Positions 3,110 to 25,174 are shown, numbered from the stretch's first letter. The stretch is 25,964 nt of DNA from a virus (IMGVR_UViG_3300032327_001521), one strand, 5' to 3'. Notes: generated by a model from the letters alone, not told the origin. A program made the numbers and translations.

Positions 3110-3814
3110 GTTTTTGTTATTATTTTGTGTTGGAATGTCAGAATTATTTATTCTGTATATTTTCACAGAATCCTCAAAGTTAAAACTCTCGGAAATCTCT
3201 GTAAGAGTATTTGTAATAGCTGTGCTCTTTAATCCGTCAAGCGATTCGAATAGCATTGAGTAATTGGAGCCTAGGCTCTCAGAAACCTGGCTAAGAGCAG
3301 CTTGTGAGAAACCTGGTTCAGCTACTAGATCATATGTGAAGATTTTCTGTAACTTTACTTTGCCGCCTTCCATTACTTGACCTGCAGCTCTAGACGAGGT
3401 TGAGATTGTACAACCTGACTCAACTAGAGTCTTTGCAATTCTTCCGCATGGCGTGTCTAGTACCTTAAGTTTAATTCTAACGGTATTTGATGACTCATCA
3501 TACTTTAATGACTCAACAACGTGAGACACATTCTTTAGAGAAACATCAAAGCTTTGTGGATGATCCATCTCGCCAAAAAGTTGACCCTTATTGATTTTTT
3601 CATTAAGGTAACTTAGATGAGGTAAGTATTCCTGCTTCTCGTAGATTCTGTTGTTTTCATTACGTTGTCCGAAAACAGCGCAAATACCTTCAAGGATAAG
3701 CGTCCCGTCATTCGCCTTTGAAACGTTCAACGCTTCATTAACCCTCTCAATGATGAACACATTGTTATCAGGGAGGCTCGTACTGTGCAATAATTTTGGT
3801 TTAGCGCTAGTCAA
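1838..3814 (-). CDS. gp21: Prohead core protease (T4 gp21-like) fused to a gp22-like scaffolding region with 14-aa repeats
   Basis: N-terminal ~170 aa have LEGICA, NENNRIY, GEMDHP (catalytic His), VSH, DTPCG, STSSRAAG (catalytic Ser), TYDLVAEPGF; the rest is coiled-coil-like with YSEYLAE-type repeats; TTG start. Confidence 0.9.
   Translation of the reverse strand: MTSAKPKLLHSTSLPDNNVFIIERVNEALNVSKANDGTLILEGICAVFGQRNENNRIYEKQEYLPHLSYLNEKINKGQLFGEMDHPQSFDVSLKNVSHVVESLKYDESSNTVRIKLKVLDTPCGRIAKTLVESGCTISTSSRAAGQVMEGGKVKLQKIFTYDLVAEPGFSQAALSQVSESLGSNYSMLFESLDGLKSTAITNTLTEISESFNFEDSVKIYRINNSDIPTQNNNKNMANDFVSREEMNQYSQLVKKKFDSLQESLSKNNAGLKSLNENSGSADVNNKLVEYVNYLAGELEKMVGYSNYLSTMLNKGIGYTEHVAEKVNNVIDYSDYLGEKIQKNIQYSDYLGEKVNQSINYGEYIAEAVEKNIAYANYLAENVDKGIQYSEYVAESAEKGIKFSNYLAENLDAAIKYSEYLGENLQKGIAYSEYIAEAMNEKLTPNTNLKTRKLLSDVKKLNESARFEVSETSGVDELASAVDGILSHIKSNSANAVLENKYPFLKLLSESNKQKFYSLEQSTKSAIVETMKGAIFFTEGEVINIMEAVMNKEVENTPAYVKFMPEKYKNLFESMTDRERNWIASQASTVVINTPYQAKTFWDSRDLRGINERIAQQADINKKVINEGQGKEGYISLEQVNESLRGYSSNYLDALKRRA
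1953..1961 (-). promoter_or_regulatory. Putative late promoter TATAAATAA for major capsid gene, embedded in the scaffold 3' end
   Basis: Exact T4 late consensus TATAAATA about 137 nt upstream of the capsid ATG. Confidence 0.55.
2495..2947 (-). repeat. About 11 tandem 14-aa (42-nt) repeats, consensus YS(E/D/N)Y(L/I/V)(A/G)ExxxKxIx
   Basis: YVNYLAGELEKMVG / YSNYLSTMLNKGIG / YTEHVAEKVNNVID / YSDYLGEKIQKNIQ / YSDYLGEKVNQSIN / YGEYIAEAVEKNIA / YANYLAENVDKGIQ / YSEYVAESAEKGIK / FSNYLAENLDAAIK / YSEYLGENLQKGIA / YSEYIAEAMNE. Confidence 0.95.
3144..3151 (-). promoter_or_regulatory. Putative internal late promoter ATAAATAA for nested scaffold
   Basis: Motif about 35 nt upstream of internal ATG 3109; encodes INN in the linker. 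Confidence 0.5.
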
Positions 3815-3880: not shown

Positions 3881-4750
3881 TTATCCCATTGCCGTAAGGA
3901 TTTTGCTTAGCGCATTTGACTCTTCTTCTGAAAGCTTGGTTATGTCAGGTTTAGCCACCTTAAGTTCAAAAAGGTAGGCTCCACGATTTCCATTTTGTGA
4001 CATTAGGCCTTGACCTTGAACTTTAACCCGAATATCCGATAAATTACCTGCTACAATTGATGTTATCTTATACTTTTTACCTAGCGGATTCTCCAATATA
4101 ATCTCATCAGAGAAAAGAATTTGTTGCAGACTCACATCAACTCGCTGTACTAAATCTAGGCCACTCATTGTTATGCCCATCATATCAACCAGAACACGTA
4201 TTATGAGATCACCAGTTGAGCTTGTTTGGGTTGGTCTGCCGAAGAAATCATTTCTTTCAAACACCATGCTTGATCCTCCGCCTCTAACTCTTAACACAAT
4301 AGCATCGTGATTTCTAACCTTTGTAAATGGATACTCACTCTTGCTCAAGTCAATTTTAACCTTTACTGACTTGTTTTCAAAACCTGAGGTTGACAGCCCT
4401 GATTTTGAAATTCTATAATCAATTGTGAACTCTAGGCCAGCCATTAGCTCAGCCAGGCTAAACCGGCGTTCCACTTGAATATTAAGGTGAGACGTGTCCC
4501 GCATATCAAATGAGAAATCATGAAATGCTGTAAATGGGTCAAATTGAGGATTTGACCTTGGGTTATCGTATTGCGCTCTCTTGTCTGGGTCACCGAGTAC
4601 TTCATATGCTTCAGCTATCTCTTTAAACCTGGCCTCTCCATCCGGGTTTACGTCAGGGTGAAACTTTTTACTTAGATTACGGTAAGCTTTTTTTATCTCT
4701 TCTTGGCTAGCCGACTTGTCCATGCCAAGTATTTCATAATAATTTTTCAA
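3881..4750 (-). CDS. dnaJ: DnaJ/CbpA-like J-domain co-chaperone lacking the Zn-finger
   Basis: NYYEILG...[20 protein letters not shown]...[22 protein letters not shown]-domain with HPD; C-terminal GDLIIRV and VQGQGL...RGAYLFEL; no CxxCxGxG repeats; TTG start. Confidence 0.92.
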
Positions 4751-4834: not shown

Positions 4835-6874
4835 GTGACATCAGCCCTATTTACGTACTACACAACTGATTTAGAAGAAGTTTTCCTAGACAACGTTAAT
4901 TCCCTAATTAAAAATTCTGACCAAAAGTACGATACTATTGTGATTTGCTCAATGGTTAGTATACCTGCTCGCATTAGTGCAGACCTTTACAGAAACCATC
5001 GAGTAGTTAGAGTCTATCCAGATCACCGAGGTAAACAAATGCTGGATCAATTACAGCGCGGAGATAAGTTTGTACTGCATCCATTTTTCTTAACTGCAAT
5101 CGCCTATCGTGGTGCAAACATAGTCACTATTTTTGATTCTAGACTATTTGTAATCAATAGAGTCCCAGCATTTAATGGTGCAAACCTATTTTATAAGACT
5201 CACACTGATCAAATTAGCCCAGGGCTTTTTACCATTCGGCCAACACCTGAGCTAACTGATATGTTGATGACAGCGTTTGTTGCAACAGACTTTAGGGATC
5301 AGCTATTGACTAATCGTTTTAGCTTTATGGTTGCTAATGCCCTAGCTGCTAGACCGTATTCAATAGTTGGCGACAAGTTTGTATTCTCCAATCCGTCTGA
5401 TTCTGCTCAAATTCGGCAGGACAAATTAATAGCGCTAGACTTCTCTAATCTAGACAAATCACGGCCAGTCTACAAACATGCCCTAGCTATTAAACAGGCA
5501 ACTCTGCCAAAGATCACTACTTTAACTAAAATAAAGAAAGCAGTAAAGTCATCAGCCAAAGTAATTGATAGAGCTATTTCAAAGATTGATATGATGCTAG
5601 CCCCTAGTCTAAATTATAGAATCTTATTTAAGTATACTTCACGAAGTCGCCCAGATCTATTTCACCGTGGTCTCTCAAGTATATTCAATAATTGCGAAAG
5701 TCAAAACTTTATGGTCTTGTGCTCTCTAGACACAGATGATGAGACCCTACCAGAGTATACAGCTGCTATTAAACAATTTCCATCCAGTCATATTAAAGCG
5801 GTATATGGAACTAGTAAGAATAAGGTAGATGCAATTAATCGAGACCTAAACTCATATAAGGGTCGATGGGATATCGTGGTTAATATGTCAGATGACATGA
5901 TATTTACCGAGTATGGATTTGATATAGTAATACGAACTGCTTTCGGAAATGACTTAGATCAGTTTATTCACTTTAATGATGGCATACAGTTTGCAAATTT
6001 ATGCTCAATGACAATCGAGGGTCGACCTTATTATCAGCGCTTTAATTACATATACAGCCCAACGTATACAAGTCTTTGGTGTGACTCTGAAGCACAAGAA
6101 GTAGCAATCAACCTGGGTAAATATAAGTATATGGGAGATGATATGTGTATCTTAAAGCACCTTCACCCAAGTGCTGGCTTTGCTGAATTTGATGACCAAT
6201 ACAAAAAAACTGAGGACCGCGCTATTTGGGCAGAAGATAAGAGAACCTATCAAATACGAAAGGCATCAGGCTTTAAGGACCCAAATCCAATAAAACAAGC
6301 CGGCTATCAGCCAAAATTATCAATTCTAATTCTTACAATCAATAGTCGAATTGATCAGTTTGCATCTCTTCTTGAAGAATTTAATGTACAAGTCAATAAA
6401 TATGATGGTAAATGCGAGATTCTATGGGAATTAGATAATGGGGAAAGAACTACTGGCGAAAAACGAAATTCTCTATTGGAGAGAGCTACTGGAGAATATG
6501 TCGCCTTTTTCGATGATGATGATTGGCCAGCTCCAAACTATGTAAGTTCAATCCTATCTGCAATTAAGTCAAAGCCAGACTGCTGCTCTCTTCTTGGAGA
6601 AATGACTACTGATGGAACAAATCCAGAGCTATTTGAGCATAGTCTAAAATATCGAGAGTGGAAAACTAATCCACATAGTCACATTCGATACGAGCGTAAT
6701 CCAAACCATCTTAATGCAATTAAATCAAGTATTGCCAAACAGATGAAATTTCCAAATATAACTTTTGGAGAAGATAAAGCCTGGTCGGATTTGCTGGCAA
6801 AAAGCGGATTACTTAAAACTGAATCAACAATTGATACTGTAATTTATTATTATCGGTATATAACTCAAAAATAA
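4835..6874 (+). CDS. Multidomain glycosyltransferase: degenerate GT8-like N-domain plus two GT-A/GT2-like domains
   Basis: Middle domain KYTSRSRP...AINRD...VNMSDDM...HLHP; C-domain LSILILT...GEKRNSLLERATGEYVAFFDDDDW...FGEDKAW; N-domain IFDS...ISPGLFTIRP is only weakly GT8-like; GTG start uncertain. Confidence 0.82.
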   Translation: MTSALFTYYTTDLEEVFLDNVNSLIKNSDQKYDTIVICSMVSIPARISADLYRNHRVVRVYPDHRGKQMLDQLQRGDKFVLHPFFLTAIAYRGANIVTIFDSRLFVINRVPAFNGANLFYKTHTDQISPGLFTIRPTPELTDMLMTAFVATDFRDQLLTNRFSFMVANALAARPYSIVGDKFVFSNPSDSAQIRQDKLIALDFSNLDKSRPVYKHALAIKQATLPKITTLTKIKKAVKSSAKVIDRAISKIDMMLAPSLNYRILFKYTSRSRPDLFHRGLSSIFNNCESQNFMVLCSLDTDDETLPEYTAAIKQFPSSHIKAVYGTSKNKVDAINRDLNSYKGRWDIVVNMSDDMIFTEYGFDIVIRTAFGNDLDQFIHFNDGIQFANLCSMTIEGRPYYQRFNYIYSPTYTSLWCDSEAQEVAINLGKYKYMGDDMCILKHLHPSAGFAEFDDQYKKTEDRAIWAEDKRTYQIRKASGFKDPNPIKQAGYQPKLSILILTINSRIDQFASLLEEFNVQVNKYDGKCEILWELDNGERTTGEKRNSLLERATGEYVAFFDDDDWPAPNYVSSILSAIKSKPDCCSLLGEMTTDGTNPELFEHSLKYREWKTNPHSHIRYERNPNHLNAIKSSIAKQMKFPNITFGEDKAWSDLLAKSGLLKTESTIDTVIYYYRYITQK

Positions 6875-6887
6875 AAACACACTCTAC

Positions 6888-7475
6888 ATGTACAGTCAGA
6901 ATAACGAAGAAGAAATTATATTGACCTATTTTAGGGATTCACCAAGCGGTAAATTTATCGACATTGGCGGGTTTCATCCAACTCAACTTAGTAATACTCG
7001 ATGCCTTGTTGAGAGAGGTTGGTCAGGCGTATATGTTGAACCATCGCCGGTTTGTATGCCAGCTTTTACTGAGGCATATTCAAATAATTCAAATATCACA
7101 CTTATTCAAAAAGCAATTACCTCAAAGTCTGGTATTGCAAAATTCTTTGAATCAAATGGGGATGCAGTAGGTACTCTAAGTGAATTGCACCGTCAACTAT
7201 GGTCAACCGCAATAAATTTTACTGAAACAGAGGTTGAAACTCTTGCAATGTCGTCCTTTTTAGAAGACCATTTTGCAGATACAGACTTCATGTCAATTGA
7301 CGTTGAGGGTACTAATCTTGAACTATTTAACCTATTACCGGATTCAGTTCTTTCTCAAATTAAAATGTTATGTATAGAGCATGAGGGAAACCACGAGTAT
7401 ATAGAAAATCGGTGTAAGGTGTTTGGCTTTAAACAGCTGCTTTGGAATGCAGAAAACATCATTCTTGCCAAATAA
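6888..7475 (+). CDS. FkbM-family SAM-dependent methyltransferase
   Basis: YSQNNEE, FIDIGG, SNT, GWSGVYVEP, DFMSIDVEG, CIEH are typical FkbM motifs. Confidence 0.9.
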   Translation: MYSQNNEEEIILTYFRDSPSGKFIDIGGFHPTQLSNTRCLVERGWSGVYVEPSPVCMPAFTEAYSNNSNITLIQKAITSKSGIAKFFESNGDAVGTLSELHRQLWSTAINFTETEVETLAMSSFLEDHFADTDFMSIDVEGTNLELFNLLPDSVLSQIKMLCIEHEGNHEYIENRCKVFGFKQLLWNAENIILAK

Positions 7476-7484
7476 TAAAATAGT

Positions 7485-8222
7485 ATGGAAAAATTAAAAC
7501 TTCCAAATGTAACTCTTTTGTGTATTGATTGCGTAAATGTGACTCGTGCAATTAATGTAGTTGAGAAATGCAAATCAGTTTGTGAATTTGGTGCAGTTAA
7601 GCTATTGACAAGTATTCCAACTGATTATCCTGAAGCAATCGAAATTATGCCTCTAAAATCCCTAGTTGCATATTCAATATTTATGCTAACTGATTCCTAT
7701 AAGTACATAGATACTTCACATGTCTTAATTGTTCAACGGGACGGTTGGATCTTAAATCCTAGTGCTTGGAAGGATGAATGGCTTAACTATGACTATATCG
7801 GACCACTCTTTATTCAATATGATCATGTAGGCAGCGGAGGCTTTTCTTTGAGAAGTCGAGCTATAATGGAATCAGCTGCAAATCTTCTCCCTATATGGAA
7901 TGGAACGCAAGAGGACGCTGATCTGATTCAGGAAAAGGTTGGATTTTACGAAGATGGATTTCTTGCATTTAGCATGATAGATCAAGGTTTTAAATATCCA
8001 TCTGCCACTGAGGCTTCATTTTTTGCGCAAGGCGGCAATGCAAATTCTGCCTATTACCAAAGCAGGCCATTTGGTTTTCATGGAGCTATTCAAAACATCG
8101 ACCACACAACCGGTGAGGTTAGTCGAGTATGTGTTCATCAAATAGCCAATCAATTATGTGAATGTAATGCTGATCATTTAAAATATATGACCGACCTGGA
8201 AACCTGTATAAAAAAATTTTAA
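7485..8222 (+). CDS. DUF5672-like putative GT-A glycosyltransferase
   Basis: LPNVTL, YIDTSHVLIVQRDGWILNP, YDYIG, VGSGGFSLRS, ED, PFGFH. Confidence 0.75.
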   Translation: MEKLKLPNVTLLCIDCVNVTRAINVVEKCKSVCEFGAVKLLTSIPTDYPEAIEIMPLKSLVAYSIFMLTDSYKYIDTSHVLIVQRDGWILNPSAWKDEWLNYDYIGPLFIQYDHVGSGGFSLRSRAIMESAANLLPIWNGTQEDADLIQEKVGFYEDGFLAFSMIDQGFKYPSATEASFFAQGGNANSAYYQSRPFGFHGAIQNIDHTTGEVSRVCVHQIANQLCECNADHLKYMTDLETCIKKF

Positions 8223-8228
8223 CACATA

Positions 8229-9110
8229 ATGAATAACTACGTCTACATAGAAAAGACCGATATCGGAGCAACCCTTACTACTTGGATCTATTGCGGATTC
8301 TGGCAAATGTGGTCTGCTGAAAAAATGGGATTAACACCATACATTAATTGGCCAAATGGATTTAACCCACCCCGTGCGCTAGAACCATATCATGATTTAG
8401 ATCAATTTTCAAAGGTCGAAAATATGTTTGATTGGTATTTTGAACAGCCCTTTGTAAATAATCCTCCACCTAGAGGAGAATGCCCGATTTGGACATGGGA
8501 AACTTGCGAAGAAGCTGGAAAATTCCCATTAATGAGCGAGCCTCTATCGGTAATCCGTGAGTATTATCAAAAGCACCTTAAGTTTAAGCCAGAAGTAAAT
8601 TCTCGCGGCCAGGCTCTAGTTGATAAGTATGGAATAGATTTTGAGAATACAATTGGCATAACATGGCGAGGCACTGATAACGTGACAGACGGCAGACCGC
8701 GCTTACCTATTGAGCTATACTATCCATTTATTGATGATATTCTTGCTGATAATCCAAACATGCGTATCATGTGCACAGCTGAAGAAACTGAGATTCTCAC
8801 CCCGCTTCTTAACCGTTATCCGCAAGCCTTTGTAATTGAGGAATTTTTCTCATCACCATTAGGTCATATGCATAATCCGGAGAGATTTAGTCCATTCTCC
8901 GGTTACGAAAGGGGTATGCAACCTGCGCTAATGGTTTGGTTATTCAGTAAATGCGCTCACTACATAAAAAACAGATCAAGTACTGGTGCAGTTGCTAGTT
9001 GGTTATCAACTGGTCGGATTGTATGCCTAGCTCACCCTGAAAATTTAGGTTATGAGCAATTACCTGATGAAGTTGAGATTGCGGGAAAAAGATACCCATT
9101 ATACCGGTAA
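8229..9110 (+). CDS. Putative fucosyltransferase-like GT-B enzyme (NodZ/GT23/GT11-like)
   Basis: NMFDWYFEQP; IGITWRGTD resembles the GxHxRGTD GDP-sugar motif; LFSKCAHYIKNRSS resembles the LSxCxxLIxxxS motif. Confidence 0.65.
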   Translation: MNNYVYIEKTDIGATLTTWIYCGFWQMWSAEKMGLTPYINWPNGFNPPRALEPYHDLDQFSKVENMFDWYFEQPFVNNPPPRGECPIWTWETCEEAGKFPLMSEPLSVIREYYQKHLKFKPEVNSRGQALVDKYGIDFENTIGITWRGTDNVTDGRPRLPIELYYPFIDDILADNPNMRIMCTAEETEILTPLLNRYPQAFVIEEFFSSPLGHMHNPERFSPFSGYERGMQPALMVWLFSKCAHYIKNRSSTGAVASWLSTGRIVCLAHPENLGYEQLPDEVEIAGKRYPLYR

Positions 9111-9136
9111 TACTTTTACAAAATAAAAATTAAGAT

Positions 9137-9706
9137 ATGGAAACTTTACAAAGAATCTATGATAAACATATTGGACCAGGAGGATTTCCAGATAAGGGTA
9201 CAGTTCATTCGTATATTGAAGAATATTCAGCCCGACTTGAACCATACCGCTTTACAGCAAAGGCTGTTCTTGAGATTGGTATATTTAGTGGAGAATCGCT
9301 AAGAATGTGGGAAGAATATTTTGAAAATGCAGAAGTTCATGGAATCGACTGCTCTGATCAGCCGCATGGCGGAATGGTTGACCTACGGCCAATGATCGCT
9401 GAAGGCACTCATAATATTTCAATAATTGACGCAACCGATTTATCTCAAGTCAAAAAGACCTTTACCGGAAAAAAGTTTGATGTTATAATTGAGGATGCAA
9501 GTCACCAATTGGCTCATCAGCTTGGAATCTATCAAATTTTTAAGAACTATCTAAACGACGGCGGTATCTACATAATTGAGGACGTCGATAAGCTCGATGA
9601 AGTTAGACATCTATTTGAGAACCTTGATCCAAGTAAAAAGATTGAAATCCTCGATCGCCGTTCAATAAAGGGCAGATTCGATGATGTCCTAGTAGTCATA
9701 TCCTAA
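9137..9706 (+). CDS. Class I SAM-dependent methyltransferase, probably sugar O-methyltransferase
   Basis: DKGTVHSY, VLEIGIFSGESLRMWEEYFENAEVHGID, FDVIIEDASH, LNDGGIYIIEDV. Confidence 0.88.
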   Translation: METLQRIYDKHIGPGGFPDKGTVHSYIEEYSARLEPYRFTAKAVLEIGIFSGESLRMWEEYFENAEVHGIDCSDQPHGGMVDLRPMIAEGTHNISIIDATDLSQVKKTFTGKKFDVIIEDASHQLAHQLGIYQIFKNYLNDGGIYIIEDVDKLDEVRHLFENLDPSKKIEILDRRSIKGRFDDVLVVIS

Positions 9707-9713
9707 AACTCTT

Positions 9714-10544
9714 ATGAAACTTGCAGCTGGATACGTAGTCTTCGATGGGTTGGAAACCCTAGAGGCATCAATTAGGTCAATTAGGTCAAATGTTGACCTT
9801 GTAATAGTATCATACCAAACAATATCATGGGCCGGCACAGAGCCAACCGGCAATTTAGTGCCAACTCTGCATGCTCTTAGGAAAAAAGGGCTAATTGATC
9901 ACATAATGGAATTCACTAAATTCATACCGACTACTCTGGCTTCACCAGAATCGGTTATGATGGCCAAGCAATTTGAGCTCAATAAGCGACAAAGTTGTCT
10001 AGACTTGGCTAAACAGCTTGGAGCAACTCACTATATGTCAATAGATGCAGACGAGTTCTATCGTGAATCTGAATTTGCATGGGCCAAGCAAGAAATTGAA
10101 GAGCATGGACTTGATGCCACTGCTCTGCACTATATTAACTATGTGACACCTTCACTGCACCGTGGCCATTCTAGATGGAAGATTCCATTCATTTATCGAG
10201 TCACACCAAACTGCCGACACTATGCAGCTCAACATATATTTACAGGAGTTGATCCAACCAGAGGCCTAACAGATGAGTCATATCACAAGACCAGAATATT
10301 TGAGAGAGACCGCCTCTCAATGCATCACATGGAAATGGTAAGAAAGGACCTGACCAGCAAATACCGGGCTTCAAGTCGATACTTTCTAGATCGCGAACGT
10401 GTTACTGATATAGCACGTGATGTTGAAACATCAATTAATACTGGTGTACTTGAGTTTAATGGACTACACCTTGGCGATAGCGATAAACCTAATGAACCAG
10501 TCAAGTTAATTCGTTGTTCAAACGAATTTGGGATTAAGTTTTAG
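9714..10544 (+). CDS. GT2-like glycosyltransferase
   Basis: VFDGLETLEASIRSIR, KRQSCL, HYMSIDADEFY (DxD motif), MHHMEMVRKD. Confidence 0.8.
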   Translation: MKLAAGYVVFDGLETLEASIRSIRSNVDLVIVSYQTISWAGTEPTGNLVPTLHALRKKGLIDHIMEFTKFIPTTLASPESVMMAKQFELNKRQSCLDLAKQLGATHYMSIDADEFYRESEFAWAKQEIEEHGLDATALHYINYVTPSLHRGHSRWKIPFIYRVTPNCRHYAAQHIFTGVDPTRGLTDESYHKTRIFERDRLSMHHMEMVRKDLTSKYRASSRYFLDRERVTDIARDVETSINTGVLEFNGLHLGDSDKPNEPVKLIRCSNEFGIKF

Positions 10545-17194: not shown

Positions 17195-17653
17195 TTAACT
17201 AAAGGGATCGAGTGATGGATTTGGAATAGCTTTCCATATCTTCTCGGAATTTGTACCCTGACCTCTAGCTATCTGTACCTCTTCAGCATAGTCTTTTATT
17301 GCAATAAGAGACTCTACGTACTCACCATCAGCTAGCAATTCTTCAACCATATTGGCCAAATCATCTGACATCTTAACTCTATACACAACTGGATGGCGCT
17401 GCGAATTAAATTTACAGCGCATCATCATCATACCCAGGTTACCACCATATGCCTTCTTTTCAGGCTCAGCCTCTCCGCCCTGATCGCTCAAGCCAAGTGA
17501 CTTAAGCTTGTCCATATTATCCGCCCTTGATAGATCAGGCTCTTTTATGAAAGACTCTACACCATGGCAGTCTGCAATACCGTAATACCAAGAGGACTCT
17601 CCTCTGCTACGGCTTTCATTAAAAGTTTCAAATGATGATATGTGATTCTTCAT
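17195..17653 (-). CDS. Hypothetical protein, probable internal head protein
   Basis: N-terminus MKNHISSFETFNE resembles the T4 capsid-targeting sequence MKTYQEFIAE. Confidence 0.7.
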   Translation of the reverse strand: MKNHISSFETFNESRSRGESSWYYGIADCHGVESFIKEPDLSRADNMDKLKSLGLSDQGGEAEPEKKAYGGNLGMMMMRCKFNSQRHPVVYRVKMSDDLANMVEELLADGEYVESLIAIKDYAEEVQIARGQGTNSEKIWKAIPNPSLDPFS

Positions 17654-17665
17654 CTCTAGTATAAT

Positions 17666-17926
17666 TTACATTTTTAAGATCTTTACGGTCAAGTTGCCGG
17701 TTCCTTTTATTAGACGATGCCACTGGTGTCTTGCAATATTGATTTTGCCAACAATTTCTCTAGGCAGCTCATCTTCAAGTTGAATTAACCAGTCTGTCTT
17801 GTCAACCGATTCAATGATTCGGTCTTCATCATCTCGATGCCACATAAGCTCAATTGGATCAATATTCTCTGAAAAGATCCGAATGACATCACTATCGACT
17901 TGATTTTCAGTATAGGGTAGAGTCAT
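17666..17926 (-). CDS. Small cupin-like protein
   Basis: ELMWHRDDEDR ... INIARHQWHRLIKG cupin-type His pattern. Confidence 0.6.
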   Translation of the reverse strand: MTLPYTENQVDSDVIRIFSENIDPIELMWHRDDEDRIIESVDKTDWLIQLEDELPREIVGKINIARHQWHRLIKGTGNLTVKILKM

Positions 17927-18423
17927 TACCCTCGAACCTTTTTTGCAAGATCTTTATCTGCCTTACCCCAAGTACCTGAAGATTTGGTTACAAATGAATT
18001 TACTCGAGCATGGGCCCATGCCTCTTGGCTTTGGCCCGGTCTGTGCCCAGTTTTCCAAGCAGCCATACCTCGGTTAAAGACCTGCTTAAGAACGCCTAGT
18101 GGCATCTTGTACTTTTCGGCCTTTTTCTTTAGCGATGTCACAGCAGCAGCACTCATTTCATTTACGGCTTCCCAGTCCGAAAACTTAAGAACTGTTGATT
18201 CACTTAGGTCCTGATTGACCTTTTTGGTAGCCGCGCTCTGCACCCTAGCCCCTTTAAATTTACCAGCCTTGTCCAGGTCTCCAGCCATTGGCTTATATGC
18301 AGTAGGGTCAGAGTCCTTCATTTTAGCCTGACTCTTCATCTGCTTTTCCTTTTTGTTCTTTTGTTCAGCCGATAGACCCTTAAAATACGGTCCAGATCTG
18401 CCAGTTACCTTTGCTTCTTTCAT
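17926..18423 (-). CDS. Basic virion-type protein resembling DUF5824; true start likely ATG 18423 (MKEAK...)
   Basis: LKQVFNRGMAAWKTGHRPGQSQEAWAHARVNSF motif; ATG directly follows the upstream stop at 18425, which removes the overlap in the ORF track. Confidence 0.72.
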   Translation of the reverse strand: MKEAKVTGRSGPYFKGLSAEQKNKKEKQMKSQAKMKDSDPTAYKPMAGDLDKAGKFKGARVQSAATKKVNQDLSESTVLKFSDWEAVNEMSAAAVTSLKKKAEKYKMPLGVLKQVFNRGMAAWKTGHRPGQSQEAWAHARVNSFVTKSSGTWGKADKDLAKKVRG

Positions 18424-18424
18424 A

Positions 18425-18973
18425 TTACCAAAATCCAGGATATGTTTTTCCGCCCCATAGATGAGCGTATCTATTGATTCTGCATGCCCAATAGCCGGCT
18501 TTTGTCTTGTCCTTTTTAAGATGACATTGATGGCGAGCCGCAAATGAGGCTCTAGCCTTGGAGTTGCTCACCTTTGCCGTAAGACCTCCATGTACATCGC
18601 CAAATGAAATCTTTTTGATATTTCCCGTTTTGGGATCCTTTATGTATACATGATACTTTTTAAGACCGCCACGCTGAGGATATCCAAGTTTGACCTCTTT
18701 ATTGTGATACTTTGCTTCAGTTAACTCTTCAATTGGAAAGTCTAACGGTACAACTGTACCCTCATAAAGACCGCTCTTACCTAATTCTGTTTCAATAAAC
18801 AGGATCTGGTCTATCCCGGTAAAACCCATTTCGCCTTGGTCAAATTTATATCGGGCCTCGGCTAGTAATTGAATGTGAGCTAGGCTGCCTGGCCTAAAAA
18901 TAGACTCAGCAACGGATAGCCCACGATCAATGTGGTATTGCAGGTTTTCAGATATTAACGTAAGACTTTTCAT
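18425..18973 (-). CDS. Hypothetical phage protein with basic C-terminal domain (KKISFGD...SFAARHQC...AGYWAC)
   Basis: Intact ORF in operon; ISE/LTE candidate cleavage sites separate an acidic N-part from a basic C-part. Confidence 0.75.
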   Translation of the reverse strand: MKSLTLISENLQYHIDRGLSVAESIFRPGSLAHIQLLAEARYKFDQGEMGFTGIDQILFIETELGKSGLYEGTVVPLDFPIEELTEAKYHNKEVKLGYPQRGGLKKYHVYIKDPKTGNIKKISFGDVHGGLTAKVSNSKARASFAARHQCHLKKDKTKAGYWACRINRYAHLWGGKTYPGFW

Positions 18974-18982
18974 ACTAATCTT

Positions 18983-19408
18983 TTATTGAATGTTTCCTCC
19001 GCATTCGCACATCATGTCTTCATTGCACTCAGCCTCTTCGTACATGGTACCGCACTCATTACATGTATAACCTTCTGACATTGTCATTTGGTGATCCTGC
19101 TCATTGTGATCCATAGAGCCTTCACCTAATTCATTGATTAGAAAGTTTGCAACCTCTTCAATGTCATCTTTAGACGTAGCAATATGGTCAACTGCCCAAT
19201 TGTGGCCATCTTTAAGAATTGAGTCCACTTCATTGGGATCCATTTCAAGAATAATGCCCGTTAATCTATGGATTGTTTCAATATTACCAAAGAACATATA
19301 GTTCTCAGCTCTATGATCATCGTGATCTACTTCCAAATGCGGCTCATCATGGCCAGCTACAAAATCATCAAAATTAAAACCTTCAAATGTTTTTACAAGT
19401 TGTTTCAT
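18983..19408 (-). CDS. Hypothetical acidic protein with CTS-like N-terminus and C-terminal Cys cluster
   Basis: MKQLVKTFEGF start; NYMFF, GHNWAVDH; CNECG...C...CECGG. Confidence 0.75.
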   Translation of the reverse strand: MKQLVKTFEGFNFDDFVAGHDEPHLEVDHDDHRAENYMFFGNIETIHRLTGIILEMDPNEVDSILKDGHNWAVDHIATSKDDIEEVANFLINELGEGSMDHNEQDHQMTMSEGYTCNECGTMYEEAECNEDMMCECGGNIQ

Positions 19409-19417
19409 TCTATTTTA

Positions 19418-20941
19418 TTATTTTAGGAACCTGTTGACAAAATCATTAAACTCAAGCACGCGCTTGTCCTTTTTGTCATTTTTCTTTTTGCGAGGTGGAT
19501 TAAAGTTATCGCCTGACCCAATTGAAGTTGGGGTTGGGGCAACAATTGCTCCCATTCCACCAATTGATCCAGGGGCTTGTGCTGATAGACCTGGTGCAAC
19601 TGCGTCCTCAAATGTTGCACCTTTCTTTTTATCAATTACCTCAGTATTTGGAATAAACATTCTGGATATTGCATCGGCCTTCATCTCACCTTCTCGACCT
19701 TTTAAGAGTCGACCGGTTGCTTTAGCTGCGGTATTTAAAGTTTTTGCATAGATATCATGAACCCGCTTGCCTAAATCAGCCCAAGCCTGTCCAGCTGGAG
19801 TAATTGGTGCGCCTGCGCCGCTTAGAAATAGGTCAAGTAACGACTGCATGCCTTTTCGGAGTTTCATTACAGTAGACTCATCCGCTATCTGCTTGCCAGT
19901 TACTGGTAGCTCAACTTTCTCATATAGCTTAAGCTTGACATTAAAGTCAAAGTGAATGCCTTTGGCTCGGTCAACCTGAATTGACTTGTCCTGTATGCGC
20001 TTTAATATGACTGCCTCAGCCTGATCAACTAGAGTATTCATGTACTTAATTGTTTCAGGTCTAGACTCAACTCTAACCTTGGAAGAACCATGTAGAGCAT
20101 TGATCTTGGACCGAATGTCTGCAATCTCAGTTTCAAACTCCTTTTGTGTAGTAAATGTTGTGTAGTTGAGTTTCACAATTCGATTTAGCAGAACAGCCTC
20201 TTCTCTATCAAATCCACCGGCTTTACTTATTTCAGCAAAGGCCTCATCTCCAATATTTGACTTTATCTTATCTTCATGATAGGATTCATCCCTGCTAATC
20301 TGTTCCTGTGTTTCATCAGGTAAGTTAGTAGCAATCTGTTCAATTAGATCAAATCGACGAAGAATCTCTGCGGCCTGAGCCTTTTTTTCAACTGGATCAG
20401 CCGTTTGGCTCTCAACTACGGCTAACGATTTCTTATTTTGCTGTGCAGCCGCAGCCAGTGGTGTCTCGTACGATTTTATAAACAGGTCTTTGATACTCTC
20501 AATTTGAGATGATATTGACTCCGCTAACCGCTTAAGCTCCTCATTTTCTCTAGCCTTTGCTGCTTGAAATATTTGGTCAAGTAGATCAATTCTTTTGGCA
20601 AATCTGCCCTGATCTACAACTAATTGTTGCACCTTTACGGTTGATGGGTCGGCCTGTAAAAGCTCGTCAGTTAGAGCTTGGGTTATTTGAGCAAGTCTTT
20701 CTTGACAATATTTAAGGTATGTTGCAACGGTTTCAGCACGCTCAATTAAAAATTGGTCTTCATATATATCGGTAGGAATTGCTCTATCCACAAATCCATC
20801 AAGTAACTCGTTATACATTTCATTTTCAGTAGGCTTAGTATTAGTATCTTCATCAGAGTTTTGATCGCCAGTTGCAATTAGGTTGGCCTCAGCAATGAGG
20901 TCCTCCAAATACTTAAACCGCTTTACCTTTATGAACGACAT
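19418..20941 (-). CDS. Helical putative internal head protein with capsid-arm-like C-terminal segment; true start likely ATG 20941 (MSFIKVKRF...)
   Basis: ATG directly follows the upstream stop at 20943; LIAE candidate cleavage site; C-terminal APGLSAQAPGSIGGMGAIVAPT...GSGDNF matches the capsid N-arm. Confidence 0.78.
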   Translation of the reverse strand: MSFIKVKRFKYLEDLIAEANLIATGDQNSDEDTNTKPTENEMYNELLDGFVDRAIPTDIYEDQFLIERAETVATYLKYCQERLAQITQALTDELLQADPSTVKVQQLVVDQGRFAKRIDLLDQIFQAAKARENEELKRLAESISSQIESIKDLFIKSYETPLAAAAQQNKKSLAVVESQTADPVEKKAQAAEILRRFDLIEQIATNLPDETQEQISRDESYHEDKIKSNIGDEAFAEISKAGGFDREEAVLLNRIVKLNYTTFTTQKEFETEIADIRSKINALHGSSKVRVESRPETIKYMNTLVDQAEAVILKRIQDKSIQVDRAKGIHFDFNVKLKLYEKVELPVTGKQIADESTVMKLRKGMQSLLDLFLSGAGAPITPAGQAWADLGKRVHDIYAKTLNTAAKATGRLLKGREGEMKADAISRMFIPNTEVIDKKKGATFEDAVAPGLSAQAPGSIGGMGAIVAPTPTSIGSGDNFNPPRKKKNDKKDKRVLEFNDFVNRFLK

Positions 20942-20942
20942 C

Positions 20943-21362
20943 TTATTTAAGTTGCAATAGGTATTGAACCTTGTTTTTAAGATCTGTGATTCCATCTGCT
21001 AGGTTAAATAGTTCAGAATCTTTTTCTCGATCAAATAGCTTACAGAAATTTTCAGTTAAAGCCTCGTCTACCAGATCAAAAAATACCTGGCGAGCCATGC
21101 TATAGTCGTAAATTTGAATTGAGGCTTGGCCAAATTGCAGTTGATCTTTGCCATACTTACCAGCAATGGACTCAATAAGAGTGTCCATCTGCTCAATAAA
21201 CTCTTCATAGAACATGCCAAAATGACGGTGCTCAGTGTCTAAACCGGTCTGCCAGTGTAGAATTTTAGCCTGGTCAGCAATCTGCATTAGTGATAGCATA
21301 AAATAGGCAATTGAGACATCTTGGCCTCCTTGTGGTTCTGTTAGGTCATCTAGTCCAAACAT
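20943..21362 (-). CDS. Ferritin/Dps-like four-helix protein (DUF5856-like)
   Basis: KILHWQT...EHRHFGMFYEEFIEQMDTLIESIAGKYG...ELFNLAD...NKVQYLL. Confidence 0.8.
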   Translation of the reverse strand: MFGLDDLTEPQGGQDVSIAYFMLSLMQIADQAKILHWQTGLDTEHRHFGMFYEEFIEQMDTLIESIAGKYGKDQLQFGQASIQIYDYSMARQVFFDLVDEALTENFCKLFDREKDSELFNLADGITDLKNKVQYLLQLK

Positions 21363-21544
21363 TATGATTTACGTAATTTTTGTTTCTTTTCCCAGGACTT
21401 AAACGGCGTCACCCAAAAGTTTCGTTCAATATTCTTCTTGAGATAGTTGTATACATCATTTCCGGTAGGGTGTTGCATCACCGCATTCTGTAAAGGCTCT
21501 TTGCCCTTTGCCCAATTTTGAACGTTTTTGTGTGTTGCTTCCAT
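21362..21544 (-). CDS. Small hypothetical protein (60 aa)
   Basis: ATG 8 nt after promoter motif; stop overlaps next ATG (TAATG). Confidence 0.7.
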   Translation of the reverse strand: MEATHKNVQNWAKGKEPLQNAVMQHPTGNDVYNYLKKNIERNFWVTPFKSWEKKQKLRKS

Positions 21545-21551
21545 AGGTATA

Positions 21552-21560
21552 GTTATTTAT
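21552..21560 (-). promoter_or_regulatory. Putative late promoter ATAAATAAC
   Basis: Intergenic, right after the terminator and just before ATG 21544. Confidence 0.62.
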
Positions 21561-21565
21561 TAACG

Positions 21566-21591
21566 AAAAAAGGATCGCTTTTGGCGATCCT
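21566..21591 (-). terminator. Rho-independent terminator after 946-aa gene
   Basis: Minus strand AGGATCGC-CAAAA-GCGATCCT followed by TTTTT. Confidence 0.85.
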
Positions 21592-21615
21592 CACATAATA
21601 TGGGTTAGGGTAAGA

Positions 21616-24456
21616 CTAATACTCTTCAATAGTGTCCTCTAGATCTTCTTCAAGTTCTTCATTTAGCCCTGCTGTGACTAAGTTACACCTAGGAACAGAA
21701 TCTGATGCAAGTTTAAATGCAAGCTTACCATCCTCAACTGCTGTTTTAAATTCATCAGCTGTTTCAATTAGGCTATACCTATCTCGATCAAGGCCTATAA
21801 ACATAAGGCTTTTGCCCTTTCCGAGAGTCTTTAAGTACTCCATGCCTAGTGCAATACCTATTGACTTGTTTATTAAGACTGCACTGCTCCAATCAATTTC
21901 ATCAGATGATTTGAATAGACCAGGGTACAGATCACTTATAAAATCAAATGCCATTTCTCTTGCTTCTGGGTCGGTGTCTGGTGAAACAGCAAATAGCATC
22001 TTTGCCCACGGTCCGCCAGTCTTAACATCAAGTATGTCACCATACCTGTCAATTAGGGCTTGACCTGCTTTTGATTTAAACATTGCCTCCTTTTTTGCTC
22101 TTGATGAATATGCTGCACTTGCGAGCTGCGCGCCACTCTTACTACTCATCTTAACCTCAATTAGTTGAGATTCAATATAGACGTCCCCATTTTTATCTTG
22201 AGTATTAATGCGACCGTCTTTTAAGAAAACTGCAATTGGGATTTCGCCTGGCCCCATTGATACATTTGATCGAGTATCAGTCAATGCCATAATCTCGTCT
22301 TTTAATTCATCACTAATTGGGACCTCACTAAATAGCTCACTCAGCGACCCTTTAGAGGTAAGGTCGTCTAGTGTAACAGTTGGATTTTCTAAATAGTCAA
22401 GCAGTTCATCTTCTTGACCTAGCACCTTTGCATCATGAATAATTGACTTAACTGAATTAATTGGAATATTCTTGTCAGTTAGGAGAGATTTAATCCCCTT
22501 ATCTGATTTACGTGATGAGTGCTTTGCCTGTTTTAATAGAGCTGAAATTACAGCCTTGCTCAGGTTAGGTAGGATCCTGGTCAATTCATCAATATCAGGC
22601 GCAGTCTCTACTGCACTGTCTGTCTCGACCGACTCATTGAGCTTCTTGCTAACATCACGATTTAAGTTAAAGAACTCGGAATGAATTGGAGCAGGCGTAT
22701 TGGCCTTAAATCCAATATAGTCGCCATTACGAATTGAATCCATAATAGATGTTTTGGTTAAACTAACCGGCAATTCAATTAGTTTAAGATCCTTTCTAAA
22801 ATTTAGGTCTCTTGACCGTTTTTTAGCCAGTTCCATCTGCATTGCAATATCCTTTACTCGGCTCTTTGTTCCAGCTATTACAACTGGTTCAAAATCTGGC
22901 TTTACTGCTCGGAGAAGGCTTTCAACCTCGCCATCTGCTACAACCCTGTGGCCAACCATTGTACTTGGATTATGACCAGTTAACTTGGTTAGGCAATTTT
23001 CAAGTGTGCCCTTTGCAATTGGCTTGCCTTTTGTGGTTTTACCATTGTGCACGCAAATGAGTAAACTTGGAAAACCGTTTGACTCAGATAACTTTTGGGC
23101 AGCTTTAACATGACCTGGGTGAATTGGCTGAAAGTCAGAAACAATTAGGTTTACACGCTTAACCGCTCTCTCCTTTTCAGGCACATTTGCAAATGTCTCA
23201 AAGTATCCCGGCTCATCACTGTCTCCAACAAATTCATTAAATGTCGGAAAGTAATTTTCAAATACGGCATCTCCCATTATTACTTTGCTAATTTTATCAA
23301 TCTGTGCATTGAGGTTGTCCTTCATCTGCTTGGTAAACAGTGTTGAATTTACCCGAGTCTTCTTTTTACGAAAAACATTTAGTAAAATTCGATAGATCTC
23401 CTTGAAATTTGTATTGGACTCAATTGTTTTTATAACCTTTGGGTTCTTAACCAGATCAAAGTTAACTCCAAACTCAGCACGTGTCAAGAATTCCGGTATT
23501 TGGATATCCAGGTCAGAGTATTTTTCACCAAATTCTGAAATAAAATCCTGGTAGATATGGTTAATTAGAGAAATATACTTCTCCTCATATGAATTGCCGC
23601 TTAGCTTAATATCACGAAGCTCAGCAATTGAATACCTCTCAATAAAATTCATTAGGTCAATTGCAATAATCCAAATATAATCATCTGACTTTTTCTGGAC
23701 CTGATCCTTGGCCTTTTCTTTGGCCCTTGCTTGAAAGACTGGATCAACCAGTTTAGCTAAGAATACTGAATCCTCGTCATCTGAGTTTGGATCATAAAAC
23801 CTAAATACTAGACCCTCGATATCCTTGTCCAGCGTATCTCTAAGAAACGAGGCCCGCATGTCTGGATTAAGGACTGACATAATATATCGAGTAAAAGATG
23901 AGGTCTTAAATTTATCAATCAGCTCTTCAGCTGGCGTGTACGCAAACTCTTGTATCTTTTCTTTTTGAGCGGATGACAGTTTGCCTTGAAAAACAATAGG
24001 CGGCCGCTCTATTTCAAGTAGATCAGCCCATTTATCAAGGGTTCCTTTATCTTGAATGGTTTCAGCAATTTCACCTTTTTCATCAAGCACGTGAATATAG
24101 CTCAGGATTAAGCCGTTTTTAGGTAGTCGATCATATGCTATGGTCTGAGCCTTTGGGCTAGTAAACCATTCCATACCAAAATGGTAGTTTTCAGGAATTT
24201 GCTCTACTGTATCAGGCCCAAGATTCTCAAAATGACGTATAGCCGGTTCGAAGTAACGACTGAGAACACGATCAATGTACGTAATCTCAGCATTACGCTT
24301 AAAAAAACGAAATTTACCCGTTTCGGAATCCTTCTGTGCACCAAAGAAGGCTCCATCCATCTTTTCATTGACAATTACTGTTTTATTTAGTAGACCTGTT
24401 AAGAAGTCTTTTCCGCGTTTATCATAAACGTCTCGTAAGTGTGATAGTCCTGGCAT
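21616..24456 (-). CDS. Multidomain protein: RNA-ligase-like nucleotidyltransferase + HxGH cytidylyltransferase-like domain + PD-(D/E)xK nuclease-like domain
   Basis: Ligase motifs I VNEKMDG, III GMEW, IV IEGLV, V LAKLV; FQPIHPGH (HxGH); MGPGE...GDVYIESQLIEVK; acidic tail. Confidence 0.72.
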   Translation of the reverse strand: MPGLSHLRDVYDKRGKDFLTGLLNKTVIVNEKMDGAFFGAQKDSETGKFRFFKRNAEITYIDRVLSRYFEPAIRHFENLGPDTVEQIPENYHFGMEWFTSPKAQTIAYDRLPKNGLILSYIHVLDEKGEIAETIQDKGTLDKWADLLEIERPPIVFQGKLSSAQKEKIQEFAYTPAEELIDKFKTSSFTRYIMSVLNPDMRASFLRDTLDKDIEGLVFRFYDPNSDDEDSVFLAKLVDPVFQARAKEKAKDQVQKKSDDYIWIIAIDLMNFIERYSIAELRDIKLSGNSYEEKYISLINHIYQDFISEFGEKYSDLDIQIPEFLTRAEFGVNFDLVKNPKVIKTIESNTNFKEIYRILLNVFRKKKTRVNSTLFTKQMKDNLNAQIDKISKVIMGDAVFENYFPTFNEFVGDSDEPGYFETFANVPEKERAVKRVNLIVSDFQPIHPGHVKAAQKLSESNGFPSLLICVHNGKTTKGKPIAKGTLENCLTKLTGHNPSTMVGHRVVADGEVESLLRAVKPDFEPVVIAGTKSRVKDIAMQMELAKKRSRDLNFRKDLKLIELPVSLTKTSIMDSIRNGDYIGFKANTPAPIHSEFFNLNRDVSKKLNESVETDSAVETAPDIDELTRILPNLSKAVISALLKQAKHSSRKSDKGIKSLLTDKNIPINSVKSIIHDAKVLGQEDELLDYLENPTVTLDDLTSKGSLSELFSEVPISDELKDEIMALTDTRSNVSMGPGEIPIAVFLKDGRINTQDKNGDVYIESQLIEVKMSSKSGAQLASAAYSSRAKKEAMFKSKAGQALIDRYGDILDVKTGGPWAKMLFAVSPDTDPEAREMAFDFISDLYPGLFKSSDEIDWSSAVLINKSIGIALGMEYLKTLGKGKSLMFIGLDRDRYSLIETADEFKTAVEDGKLAFKLASDSVPRCNLVTAGLNEELEEDLEDTIEEY

Positions 24457-24466
24457 AGTTATTTGA

Positions 24467-25156
24467 TTAATCTAATGGTCCGTATTCTCCGCTCGCTATT
24501 CGGTCACCTAATCGAATAGATTCTGCCGAGCTTGCAGATATCTGCAATGTTGTAATCAACTGACAGTATTCCGGGTTTTCAGTCAAAAATTTTAAAACTT
24601 CACGTGTATCATAGTCTTGATATGATCGCTTTGGAATTGCAACATACTTTTGTATGGTTGTTCGCTGGGCACTAATATCCCATAGCTTAAGTACATATTC
24701 ATCAGTTGAGTCAAGTCGATTTAACTCATCAATCATTTCCTTTATTCCATTAGCCTTTGCTTCACTTGCTTCAAGTTTTAGGTCCGCAATCTCCTCCTCA
24801 GTAAACTCTTCTAGGCCAATTTGCCTTACTAGAGCGTCACGTTCATCATACTTATTATCATATGTTAACCTGTTTAGCTTAGCCTTAATCTCAGGTGTAA
24901 GTGCTCCAATTGATATTAGTCGCCTCCATAATAAGTTAAAGAATAGAGCTTCCTCTTCTTCTATTGGAACAGATCTAGAACCAAGCAAACCGCTTGGGTA
25001 AGTTATGTACTTTAAGTTTGGACACAGCTCAATAATCTTTTCTACATCCCTAATTAATATAAAGTTTTTTGATATGAGCCCAAGTCGGTTAAGTTCATAA
25101 GCTCCATCGTTTTCATTAACGAATTTTAAAAAATCCTTGATATGGTTCATTGCCAA
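24467..25156 (-). CDS. Hypothetical protein, probable internal head protein
   Basis: N-terminus MNHIKDFLKFVNE is CTS-like; preceded by ATAAATAAC. Confidence 0.72.
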   Translation of the reverse strand: MAMNHIKDFLKFVNENDGAYELNRLGLISKNFILIRDVEKIIELCPNLKYITYPSGLLGSRSVPIEEEEALFFNLLWRRLISIGALTPEIKAKLNRLTYDNKYDERDALVRQIGLEEFTEEEIADLKLEASEAKANGIKEMIDELNRLDSTDEYVLKLWDISAQRTTIQKYVAIPKRSYQDYDTREVLKFLTENPEYCQLITTLQISASSAESIRLGDRIASGEYGPLD

Positions 25157-25165
25157 TTCTTTCTT

Positions 25166-25174
25166 GTTATTTAT
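25166..25174 (-). promoter_or_regulatory. Putative late promoter ATAAATAAC
   Basis: Overlaps the kinase stop, 10 nt upstream of ATG 25156. Confidence 0.55.

Follow-up and report, generated by a model that had tools for sequence, protein, structure and literature searches.

Probable counterparts of the T4 capsid targeting sequence on a subset of predicted late proteins of an uncultured jumbo phage

Introduction

The internal proteins IPI, IPII and IPIII of phage T4 carry an N-terminal capsid targeting sequence (CTS) (Mullaney and Black 1996; reviewed in PMC9026906 and PMC3012670). In this peptide, residues 4 and 7 govern targeting and residues 8 and 10 processing; with Asp at position 10 the peptide still targets but is no longer cut (PMC9026906). 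In the T4 genome (NC_000866), IPII and IPIII begin MKTYQEFIAE and IPI begins MKTFKEFT...ITE. Here we analyze a 25,964-nt stretch of DNA from the virus IMGVR_UViG_3300032327_001521 (the window), in which several proteins encoded by a block of ten genes at 17195-25150 begin with, or contain, a short peptide resembling the T4 CTS, referred to below as the tag. We describe the motif itself, its enrichment at protein N-termini, its portability among proteins, the head machinery that matches it and its association with a promoter-like element. It is likely, in our judgment, that a subset of late proteins carries a counterpart of the T4 CTS, and that these proteins are packaged, cut and injected cargo or core proteins of the head.

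Other head proteins are also trimmed. T4 Alt is cut at both ends (ITE-6 and LTE-619), and the head-protein propeptides of SPN3US exceed 100 residues and hold several cleavage sites (PMC5694885). The T4 late promoter reads TATAAATA, with a first T that T4 relatives conserve poorly (PMC1524935). Aquatic 'moraphages', described in a 2025 paper, encode T4-like structural proteins, DnaJ and glycosyltransferases. Our literature search found no paper linking the CTS to metagenomic jumbo phages.

Results

The tag and its enrichment at protein N-termini

Tag copies were scored with a gapped position-specific scoring matrix (PSSM) trained on the tags of relatives, with a reporting threshold of 4.5 bits. 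The principal copies in the block are as follows.

17195-25150, minus strand: the complete block; its ten genes share one orientation and form two putative late transcription units
25112-25150, minus strand: MNHIKDFLKFVNE, N-terminal tag of p227 (gene 24467-25150), 16.5 bits, p per position 3e-5
17615-17653, minus strand: MKNHISSFETFNE, N-terminal tag of p152 (gene 17195-17653), 15.1 bits; orthologues begin MKYANSFKSFNE
20888-20941, minus strand: MSFIKVKRFKYLEDLIAE, N-terminal tag of p507 (gene 19418-20941), 10.2 bits
19376-19408, minus strand: MKQLVKTFEGF, N-terminal tag of p141 (gene 18983-19408), 9.7 bits, contributed entirely by the motif's first half
18157-18192, minus strand: VLKFSDWEAVNE, internal tag of the DUF5824 protein (gene 17926-18423, with the ATG at 18423 adopted as its start), 15.6 bits, p per position 3e-5

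The relatives used for comparison are two IMG/VR records, G001 and G002 (252.6 and 253.1 kb; CheckV completeness 93-94%), which share the block in the same gene order at 55-79% protein identity. Genome-wide counts of tags were taken from these two genomes, not from the phage of the window. A megablast search of the block against GenBank phages returned no match, and a 33-mer taken from the window had no exact hit in IMG/VR.

N-terminal tags follow the pattern M-K-x-(I/L/V)-K-x-F-x-x-(F/W)-(I/L/V)-(N/T/S/A)-E, and 31 distinct tags yield the consensus (I/L/V)-K-x-F-(T/S)-(Q/D/E)-(F/W)-(I/L/V)-(N/T/S/A)-E-(S/N/A). Phe or Tyr at position i and Phe or Trp at i+3 occur in p227, p152, p141 and p507 and in the 31 unique tags of the relatives. 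The hydrophobic-x-Glu end is VNE in p227, FNE in p152, IAE in p507 and VNE in the internal DUF5824 copy; p141 has none. The p507 tag ends LIAE/A (slashes mark actual or presumed cuts), comparable to IAE/A in T4. An earlier note on this DNA, made from the sequence by eye, had likened the N-terminal peptides to the T4 CTS, and the likeness extends to the T4 targeting residues 4 and 7 and processing residues 8 and 10 (PMC9026906). All eight peptides quoted there are present where it placed them, with one gene start corrected: p227 begins at the ATG at 25150, not at the TTG at 25156, because eight of eight homologues begin MNHIKDF.

The N-terminal motif is retained in the orthologues of G001 and G002, with changes at other residues. 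Those of p227 begin MKNLKGFTEFIAE and MKNLKGFTDFISE, and the tag is retained in all eight homologue clusters of this protein (an ESM Atlas search with p227 produced no usable lead). The p507 orthologues begin MFLKVKRFKHIEDLLTE and MFLKVKRFKHLEDLLAE, and those of p141 begin MKNLVKTFEAFEQ. Tags elsewhere in the relatives include MKTFSQFINE and MKSFKQFLNE, and neighboring genes of the relatives that are absent from the window are tagged as well (MKIIKGYTQWLNE, MVKTFTQFITE). Among the relatives' tags, codons differ synonymously from one tag to the next; thus, it is the peptide that is conserved and on which selection acts.

Peptides of this design are concentrated at N-termini. The loose motif [VI]..F..[FW] stands at residue 4-5 in 3 of 26 window proteins versus 0.09 expected (P about 1e-4), and it starts within the first nine residues of 16 proteins in G001 and 18 in G002, where about one is expected. 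For the strict core [FYW]..[FW][ILVMFTN].E, 14 proteins in G001 and 20 in G002 have a copy starting at one of the first 12 residues. Its internal rate predicts 1.0 and 1.3, respectively, and shuffling 0.4-0.6; Poisson probabilities of the excess are 7e-12 and 1e-17. Inside proteins, the loose motif occurs at chance frequency (26 versus 24.9 and 29 versus 24.8 in shuffles); the genuine signal lies at N-termini. The strict core is roughly twice as frequent inside proteins as in shuffles (22 versus about 10.7), an excess that ordinary helices could partly explain. With near-misses added by inspection, tagged genes number roughly 17-25 or more per genome and are spread genome-wide, so the tag is not special to the block as had been supposed. 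As a control, the strict core was applied to T4, where it picks out 4 of 269 open reading frames (ORFs), IPII and IPIII among them. Small ORFs with CTS-like starts also occur on the T4 minus strand at 18966-19130 and 20112-20408 (MKTFKEFIKE, MTRKYVKWIAE).

Tagged proteins of the relatives include CHAP, phage lysozyme, peptidoglycan-binding (PG-binding) and NTP_transf_2 domains; most belong to no known family. In the window, p141 is very acidic (isoelectric point [pI] 4.2) and His-rich and ends in a Cys cluster, C-x2-C ... C-x-C-G-G, that looks like a small zinc ribbon.

Head machinery matching the tag

The window is part of an uncultured jumbo phage of about 250 kb with T4-type head construction. 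Its head-related features are listed below.

86-1816, minus strand: gp23-type major capsid protein (MCP), Pfam Gp23 2e-40
1658-1669, minus strand: likely MCP maturation site SINE/AAAAPG, with the presumed cut between E and A
1838-3814, minus strand: prohead protease (S77/S80) fused to scaffold; phrog_207 1.9e-34, Pfam S80 3.2e-8, S77 1e-7
2498-2959, minus strand: eleven scaffold repeats of 14 residues, K-G-I-x-Y-S-E-Y-I-A-E-N-x-x, conserved in G001 and G002
19532-19612, minus strand: copy of the MCP N-arm in p507 (FED/AVAPGL...GAIVAPT)

Head machinery to match the tags is present in the form of a gp23-type MCP and an S77/S80 protease. The nearest GenBank relatives of the MCP are uncultured 460-735-kb phages and Lak phages (29-37% identity), followed by T4-like phages. 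A MAFFT alignment of the MCP N-terminus with T4 gp23 was unreliable, and the cut site was placed by conservation in G001 and G002, where (I/L)NE is retained and is followed by a variable linker and then by conserved APGLFLQQPGS. The gp23 propeptide of T4 ends FGSFLTE/A, a cut that we take to fall after Glu65. Asn at P2, the commonest choice in the tags, is also found at the MCP site. The scaffold repeats are identical in number in G001 and G002, and 8 of the 11 contain Y..Y[LIV][AG]E; they do not score in the tag PSSM scan.

A second link to the head is found in p507. By BLASTP, MCP residues 40-78 match p507 residues 432-470 at 51% identity (E 4e-7). This 39-residue stretch is also matched in the G001 orthologue of p507 and is conserved in a distant fused relative, P0145. 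It starts just after an acidic residue in both proteins, FED/ in p507 and INE/ in the MCP (MCP stretch 1583-1657). This copy of the N-arm ties p507 to the head.

On the minus strand the genes run from the MCP through the protease/scaffold, DnaJ, and baseplate and tail genes to the studied block. A full DnaJ (J domain plus DnaJ_C) is encoded at 3881-4750, directly upstream of the protease-scaffold gene. All long ORFs of the window lie on the minus strand except within 4835-10544, where the only plus-strand genes, six co-oriented glycosyltransferase/methyltransferase genes, are inserted between head and baseplate genes.

Tag copies at module joints

The DUF5824 protein carries its tag between a basic module and a C-terminal domain, and this internal copy scores as high as the best N-terminal tags. 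Close homologues conserve it as F-x-[ED]-W-x-x-[VI]-N-E. Among the 2056 homologues of the family, P0053, P0082 and P0113 have the motif as their N-terminus, ahead of the same C-terminal domain, and other members place a tag ahead of the basic module instead. In the AlphaFold2 (AF2) model, residues 71-90 have a predicted local distance difference test (pLDDT) score of 55-56 and are flanked by two confident modules; a Foldseek search of this model against the PDB gave nothing at E <= 0.001. We read the DUF5824 copy as a real junction tag.

Further candidate copies lie inside or at the end of block proteins.

19430-19459, minus strand: VLEFNDFVNR, C-terminal tag-like sequence of p507, 5.8 bits (7e-4), without Glu
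23221-23250, minus strand: FPTFNEFVGD, linker preceding the HxGH nucleotidyltransferase domain of the 946-aa protein (gene 21616-24456), below 4.5 bits
21392-21412, minus strand: VTPFKSW in the 60-aa ORF, below 4.5 bits in the PSSM scan

The p507 copy corresponds to ILEFSDFINQ and ILEFSDFLKQ in the orthologues and is positionally equivalent to an internal junction of P0145, SFSAFINE/S. Probably this copy is a relic, or else it serves for docking without being cleaved. In the 946-aa protein, ENYFPTFxEFVG is nearly invariant among 13 homologues and is followed by E, D or T; the window has Asp at the would-be cut residue, which is the residue that blocks cutting in T4. The AF2 model of this protein is poor (mean pLDDT 50), and residues 395-431, below 50, show a linker that is not confidently folded. 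We treat this copy as a conserved linker rather than a tag. The idea that it is a 'fossil N-terminus' was unsupported, as stand-alone nucleotidyltransferases that start with the linker are mostly fragments of the same fusion. VTPFKSW was rejected as a chance occurrence, being below the PSSM threshold and an instance of a loose motif that is not enriched inside proteins. The suggestion that tags also stand in the middle and at the C-terminus of proteins thus survives for junctions in the DUF5824 family and the p152 family described below. It does not survive for the 60-aa ORF or the 946-aa protein, and at the p507 C-terminus the copy is weak.

Portability of the tag

The p152 domain is small and widespread in phages, mostly on marine 30-40-kb contigs, and has no Pfam or PHROG family. 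It has 210 homologue clusters. Among the best 150 of these, which our tag survey covered, about 140 are short, untagged proteins that start directly at Y.GIADCHGIESF, and about nine have an N-terminal tag. Longer members (e.g. P0144 and P0153) carry a tag-like peptide ending in NE or E directly ahead of the domain. P0145 is a 793-residue chain that opens with a p507-like part (38% identity over residues 3-481), succeeded in turn by a basic stretch, SFSAFINE/S, a small module, IREFNE/S and the p152 domain. It has the appearance of a Rosetta-stone fusion of p507-like, small and p152-like modules, each of the two joints being marked by a tag.

In the DUF5824 family and in the p152 family alike, tag-plus-cargo is repeatedly preceded by one and the same first module, which is about 90 residues long and starts M-x-F-K-(V/I)-G-D-x-V (P0007, P0139, P0144, P0146, P0153 and P0158); this module exists as a free-standing 110-aa gene in G001 (L001 16424-16756).

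Contigs bearing sampled untagged p152 clusters measure <=42 kb, and those with tagged ones reach 161 kb. Neither S77 nor Gp23 is matched in two IMG/VR genomes of 36-38 kb that encode an untagged p152 homologue, and G001 and G002, with tagged p152, have both; this co-occurrence of tag and protease covers four genomes and the p152 family. Because the tagged domains are diverse, the p152 domain is mostly untagged and DUF5824 members are tagged at different places, the tag is portable, borne by unrelated proteins without being part of their fold.

Late-promoter-like motifs

An element, ATAAATAA, that resembles the T4 late promoter accompanies tagged genes. In G001 and G002, using heuristic gene calls, it lies <=80 nt upstream of 22 of 42 tagged versus 88 of 578 untagged genes (Fisher 1e-7), and copies mostly end 15-25 nt before the ATG. 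The window has eight copies, every one on the gene strand. They stand ahead of the protease gene, a start internal to the scaffold, and the genes for the 670-aa protein, the 60-aa protein and p227. In G001 the element also precedes the scaffold start, the homologue of the 670-aa tail gene and many very large genes. Three features bear on the organization of the block.

25167-25174, minus strand: ATAAATAA, 17 nt before the p227 start
21553-21560, minus strand: ATAAATAA, 9 nt upstream of the 60-aa gene, where the second unit (60 aa to p152) likely starts
21570-21592, minus strand: terminator-like hairpin after the 946-aa gene; 9-bp stem with 5 GC pairs, T-run

The placement of ATAAATAA and the hairpin after the 946-aa gene make the block look like two late transcription units, in keeping with the late expression that the earlier note proposed.

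One copy, at 3144-3151, falls within the protease ORF, and an in-frame ATG follows 35 nt later, at 3109. ORF calls in G001 and G002 start the scaffold at the equivalent Met (MANDFVSREEM). The internal element and in-frame ATG suggest that the scaffold may also be made alone.

Discussion

The block is a mosaic of tagged and untagged genes. Four of its ten genes (p227, p507, p141 and p152) have an N-terminal tag, one (DUF5824) has an internal tag and five are untagged: those for the 946-aa, 60-aa and DUF5856/Dps-like (139 aa) proteins, p182 and p86. The earlier picture of a uniform set of packaged cargo is not supported. Our favored explanation concerns the tagged proteins. As a propeptide of 10-18 residues with two aromatics three apart and then hydrophobic-x-Glu, most often (I/V/L)-N-E, the tag would bind the scaffold core as the prohead assembles. 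The protease would cut after the tag Glu, as it would at the (I/L)NE of the MCP and in the scaffold repeats, and the freed protein, retained in the head, would reach the next host together with the DNA. The binding of the tag, its cleavage, and the packaging and ejection of the protein are steps that we infer. p227, p152 and p507 would be cargo or core proteins, and p141 probably also. The DUF5824 protein, tagged between two modules, would probably be cut in two. p507, with its tag, coiled-coil-like body and MCP N-arm copy, is probably itself head-associated. The five untagged genes, including that of the ligase-nucleotidyltransferase, need not encode packaged proteins.

Several points weigh against packaging of the tagged set. 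This lineage is known from sequence alone, and gene calls were made by a simple greedy ORF rule, which renders all counts approximate. The p141 tag comprises the targeting half only and lacks Glu at the cut position. A profile comparison (hhalign) of tags with scaffold repeats was not significant (P 0.18), leaving a likeness of pattern only. Tagged proteins are mostly acidic (median pI 5.2), as opposed to the basic IPII and IPIII of T4, and one tagged protein of a relative is HAD-nucleotidase-like by motif only, without a Pfam match. If all 17-25 or more tagged genes per genome were packaged, the set would far exceed that of T4. Finally, an untagged kinase/nucleotidyltransferase/DUF5824/p182 module is present in phage HTVC008M.

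This last point leads to the most serious alternative, to which we assign even chances: that the block is mainly a cytoplasmic module for nucleic-acid repair or nucleotide metabolism, whose enzymes act in the infected cell, with tagged ORFans merely interspersed. Its members would be a HAD phosphatase just beyond the end of the window, a P-loop kinase, the RNA-ligase/HxGH/C-terminal-domain protein, DUF5824 and p182. The 946-aa protein indeed has a Pfam RNA_ligase match (6.7e-7) and an HxGH motif, the neighboring 202-aa protein has a P-loop, and a HAD-like ORF stands at the equivalent place in L001, a combination that may or may not correspond to a heal-and-seal module of the T4 Pnkp/Rnl type, in which an RNA ligase works with a kinase and a phosphatase on cleaved tRNA. 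The gene string gp129-gp134 of HTVC008M lacks any tag-like motif, and the 946-aa, p182, p86, Dps-like and 60-aa proteins of the block have no N-terminal tag. A repair module leaves unexplained, however, the tags of p227, p152, p507 and p141 and the internal tag of DUF5824, and its genes sit behind late-promoter-like motifs between head and tail genes. The two explanations are compatible, as a mosaic block can accommodate both. The untagged part may be an ordinary intracellular enzyme module; the recurrence of kinase, ligase-nucleotidyltransferase, DUF5824 and p182 genes as a module without tags in HTVC008M does not support the earlier inference of a single cargo set.

The remaining alternatives deny the tag a role in the prohead. 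A shared N-terminus might be a leader for a modifying enzyme or for the phage DnaJ chaperone, or an oligomerization helix. The DnaJ gene directly upstream of the protease gene and the six transferase-type genes at 4835-10544 offer candidate partners, but the motif reproduces the targeting and cutting positions defined by T4 mutagenesis, ends in hydrophobic-N-E as does the MCP's own site and, in the small sample of four genomes, goes with S77 and Gp23. We regard such a leader as improbable. Still harder to sustain, and in our estimate very improbable, is that the motif has no sorting role and is a by-product of AT-rich starts or translation-initiation preference, or a common amphipathic helix. 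The tag residues (K, F, I, N, E) do have AT-rich codons, MK is the commonest start and the twofold internal enrichment of the strict core is what helices would give. A by-product would not be expected to show fixed spacing and order in 14-20 proteins where about one is expected (0.4-0.6 in shuffles) or synonymous codon variation. Nor would it recur at internal joints of fused proteins, far from start codons, and be absent from most homologues of the same domain.

If the tag is a CTS counterpart, as we favor, a more ambitious version can be entertained, though we hold it only tentatively and think it may well be wrong. The T4-type tag would be a general plug-in address, present on about one-tenth of genes and working between modules too. 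Multi-module proteins would be loaded via their tags and cut by the protease at the tag Glu, and cargo would be fused, split or swapped at tags, with the DUF5824 variants, the P0145 fusion and the C-terminal tag relic of p507 as examples. The tag might even be a stand-alone copy of the 14-residue repeat that makes up the scaffold, docking into the scaffold's helical bundle. Should the tag work as in T4, the proteins delivered by these abundant uncultured aquatic jumbo phages could be read from sequence. The tagged genes would then form a list of candidate first-strike effectors, comprising cell-wall hydrolases, nucleotidyltransferases and many proteins of unknown function, and junction tags would reveal cargo being assembled and reshuffled as protease-cut polyproteins. 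Foreign proteins could also be directed into such capsids by the tag, an approach already used with T4.

Comparison with known systems

The tag and the T4 CTS are alike as N-terminal propeptides of 10-19 residues that start MK, head otherwise unrelated proteins and place aromatics at i and i+3 before hydrophobic-x-Glu. Both occur with gp23-type and gp21-type head genes and with late-type promoters, which here are putative. They differ at P2, which is mostly Asn here versus Ala or Thr in T4, and in length, with many tags of 13 residues here versus 10. Tagged genes number about 17-25 or more per genome here and a handful in T4. The predicted cargo here, most of it acidic, includes domains of cell-wall hydrolases and nucleotidyltransferases, copies are also found at internal module joints, and the phages concerned have been encountered purely as genome sequence.

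T4 Alt, SPN3US and phiKZ offer parallels in that a head-packaged enzyme is involved and the prohead protease cuts away from the extreme N-terminus. Their internal sites are cleavage sites, not repeats of a whole targeting motif, whereas here the full tag lies between modules; moreover, SPN3US and phiKZ belong to another capsid lineage, without a T4-like short CTS. Among core proteins, T4 gp22, which begins MLKEQLIAE and has 20 [LIV]xE sites, and other gp21-cut proteins resemble p507 and the repeat scaffold, which also carry many hydrophobic-x-Glu sites. In contrast to gp22, the scaffold here is fused to the protease and built of eleven regular repeats, and p507 has no detectable sequence relative in T4.

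The closest counterpart of the untagged part of the block is gp129-gp134 of HTVC008M (L046, 105463-112005), which has the same families in the same order: a P-loop kinase, a cytidylyltransferase fused to DUF5824, a p182 homologue and a 5'-3' deoxyribonucleotidase. For DUF5824, the match covers 93% of the query at 43% identity. HTVC008M differs in having no tag-like motif in these proteins, in joining nucleotidyltransferase and DUF5824 in one chain and in lacking an RNA-ligase domain.

The CTS principle and its diversity among T-even phages are already established, and cuts away from the N-terminus are not new, as T4 Alt and SPN3US demonstrate. The advance here is one of breadth and variation, not of principle. 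What appears to be new is an expanded family of tags with Asn at P2, a predicted cargo that is mostly acidic and partly enzymatic, and the recurrence of the tag at module joints.

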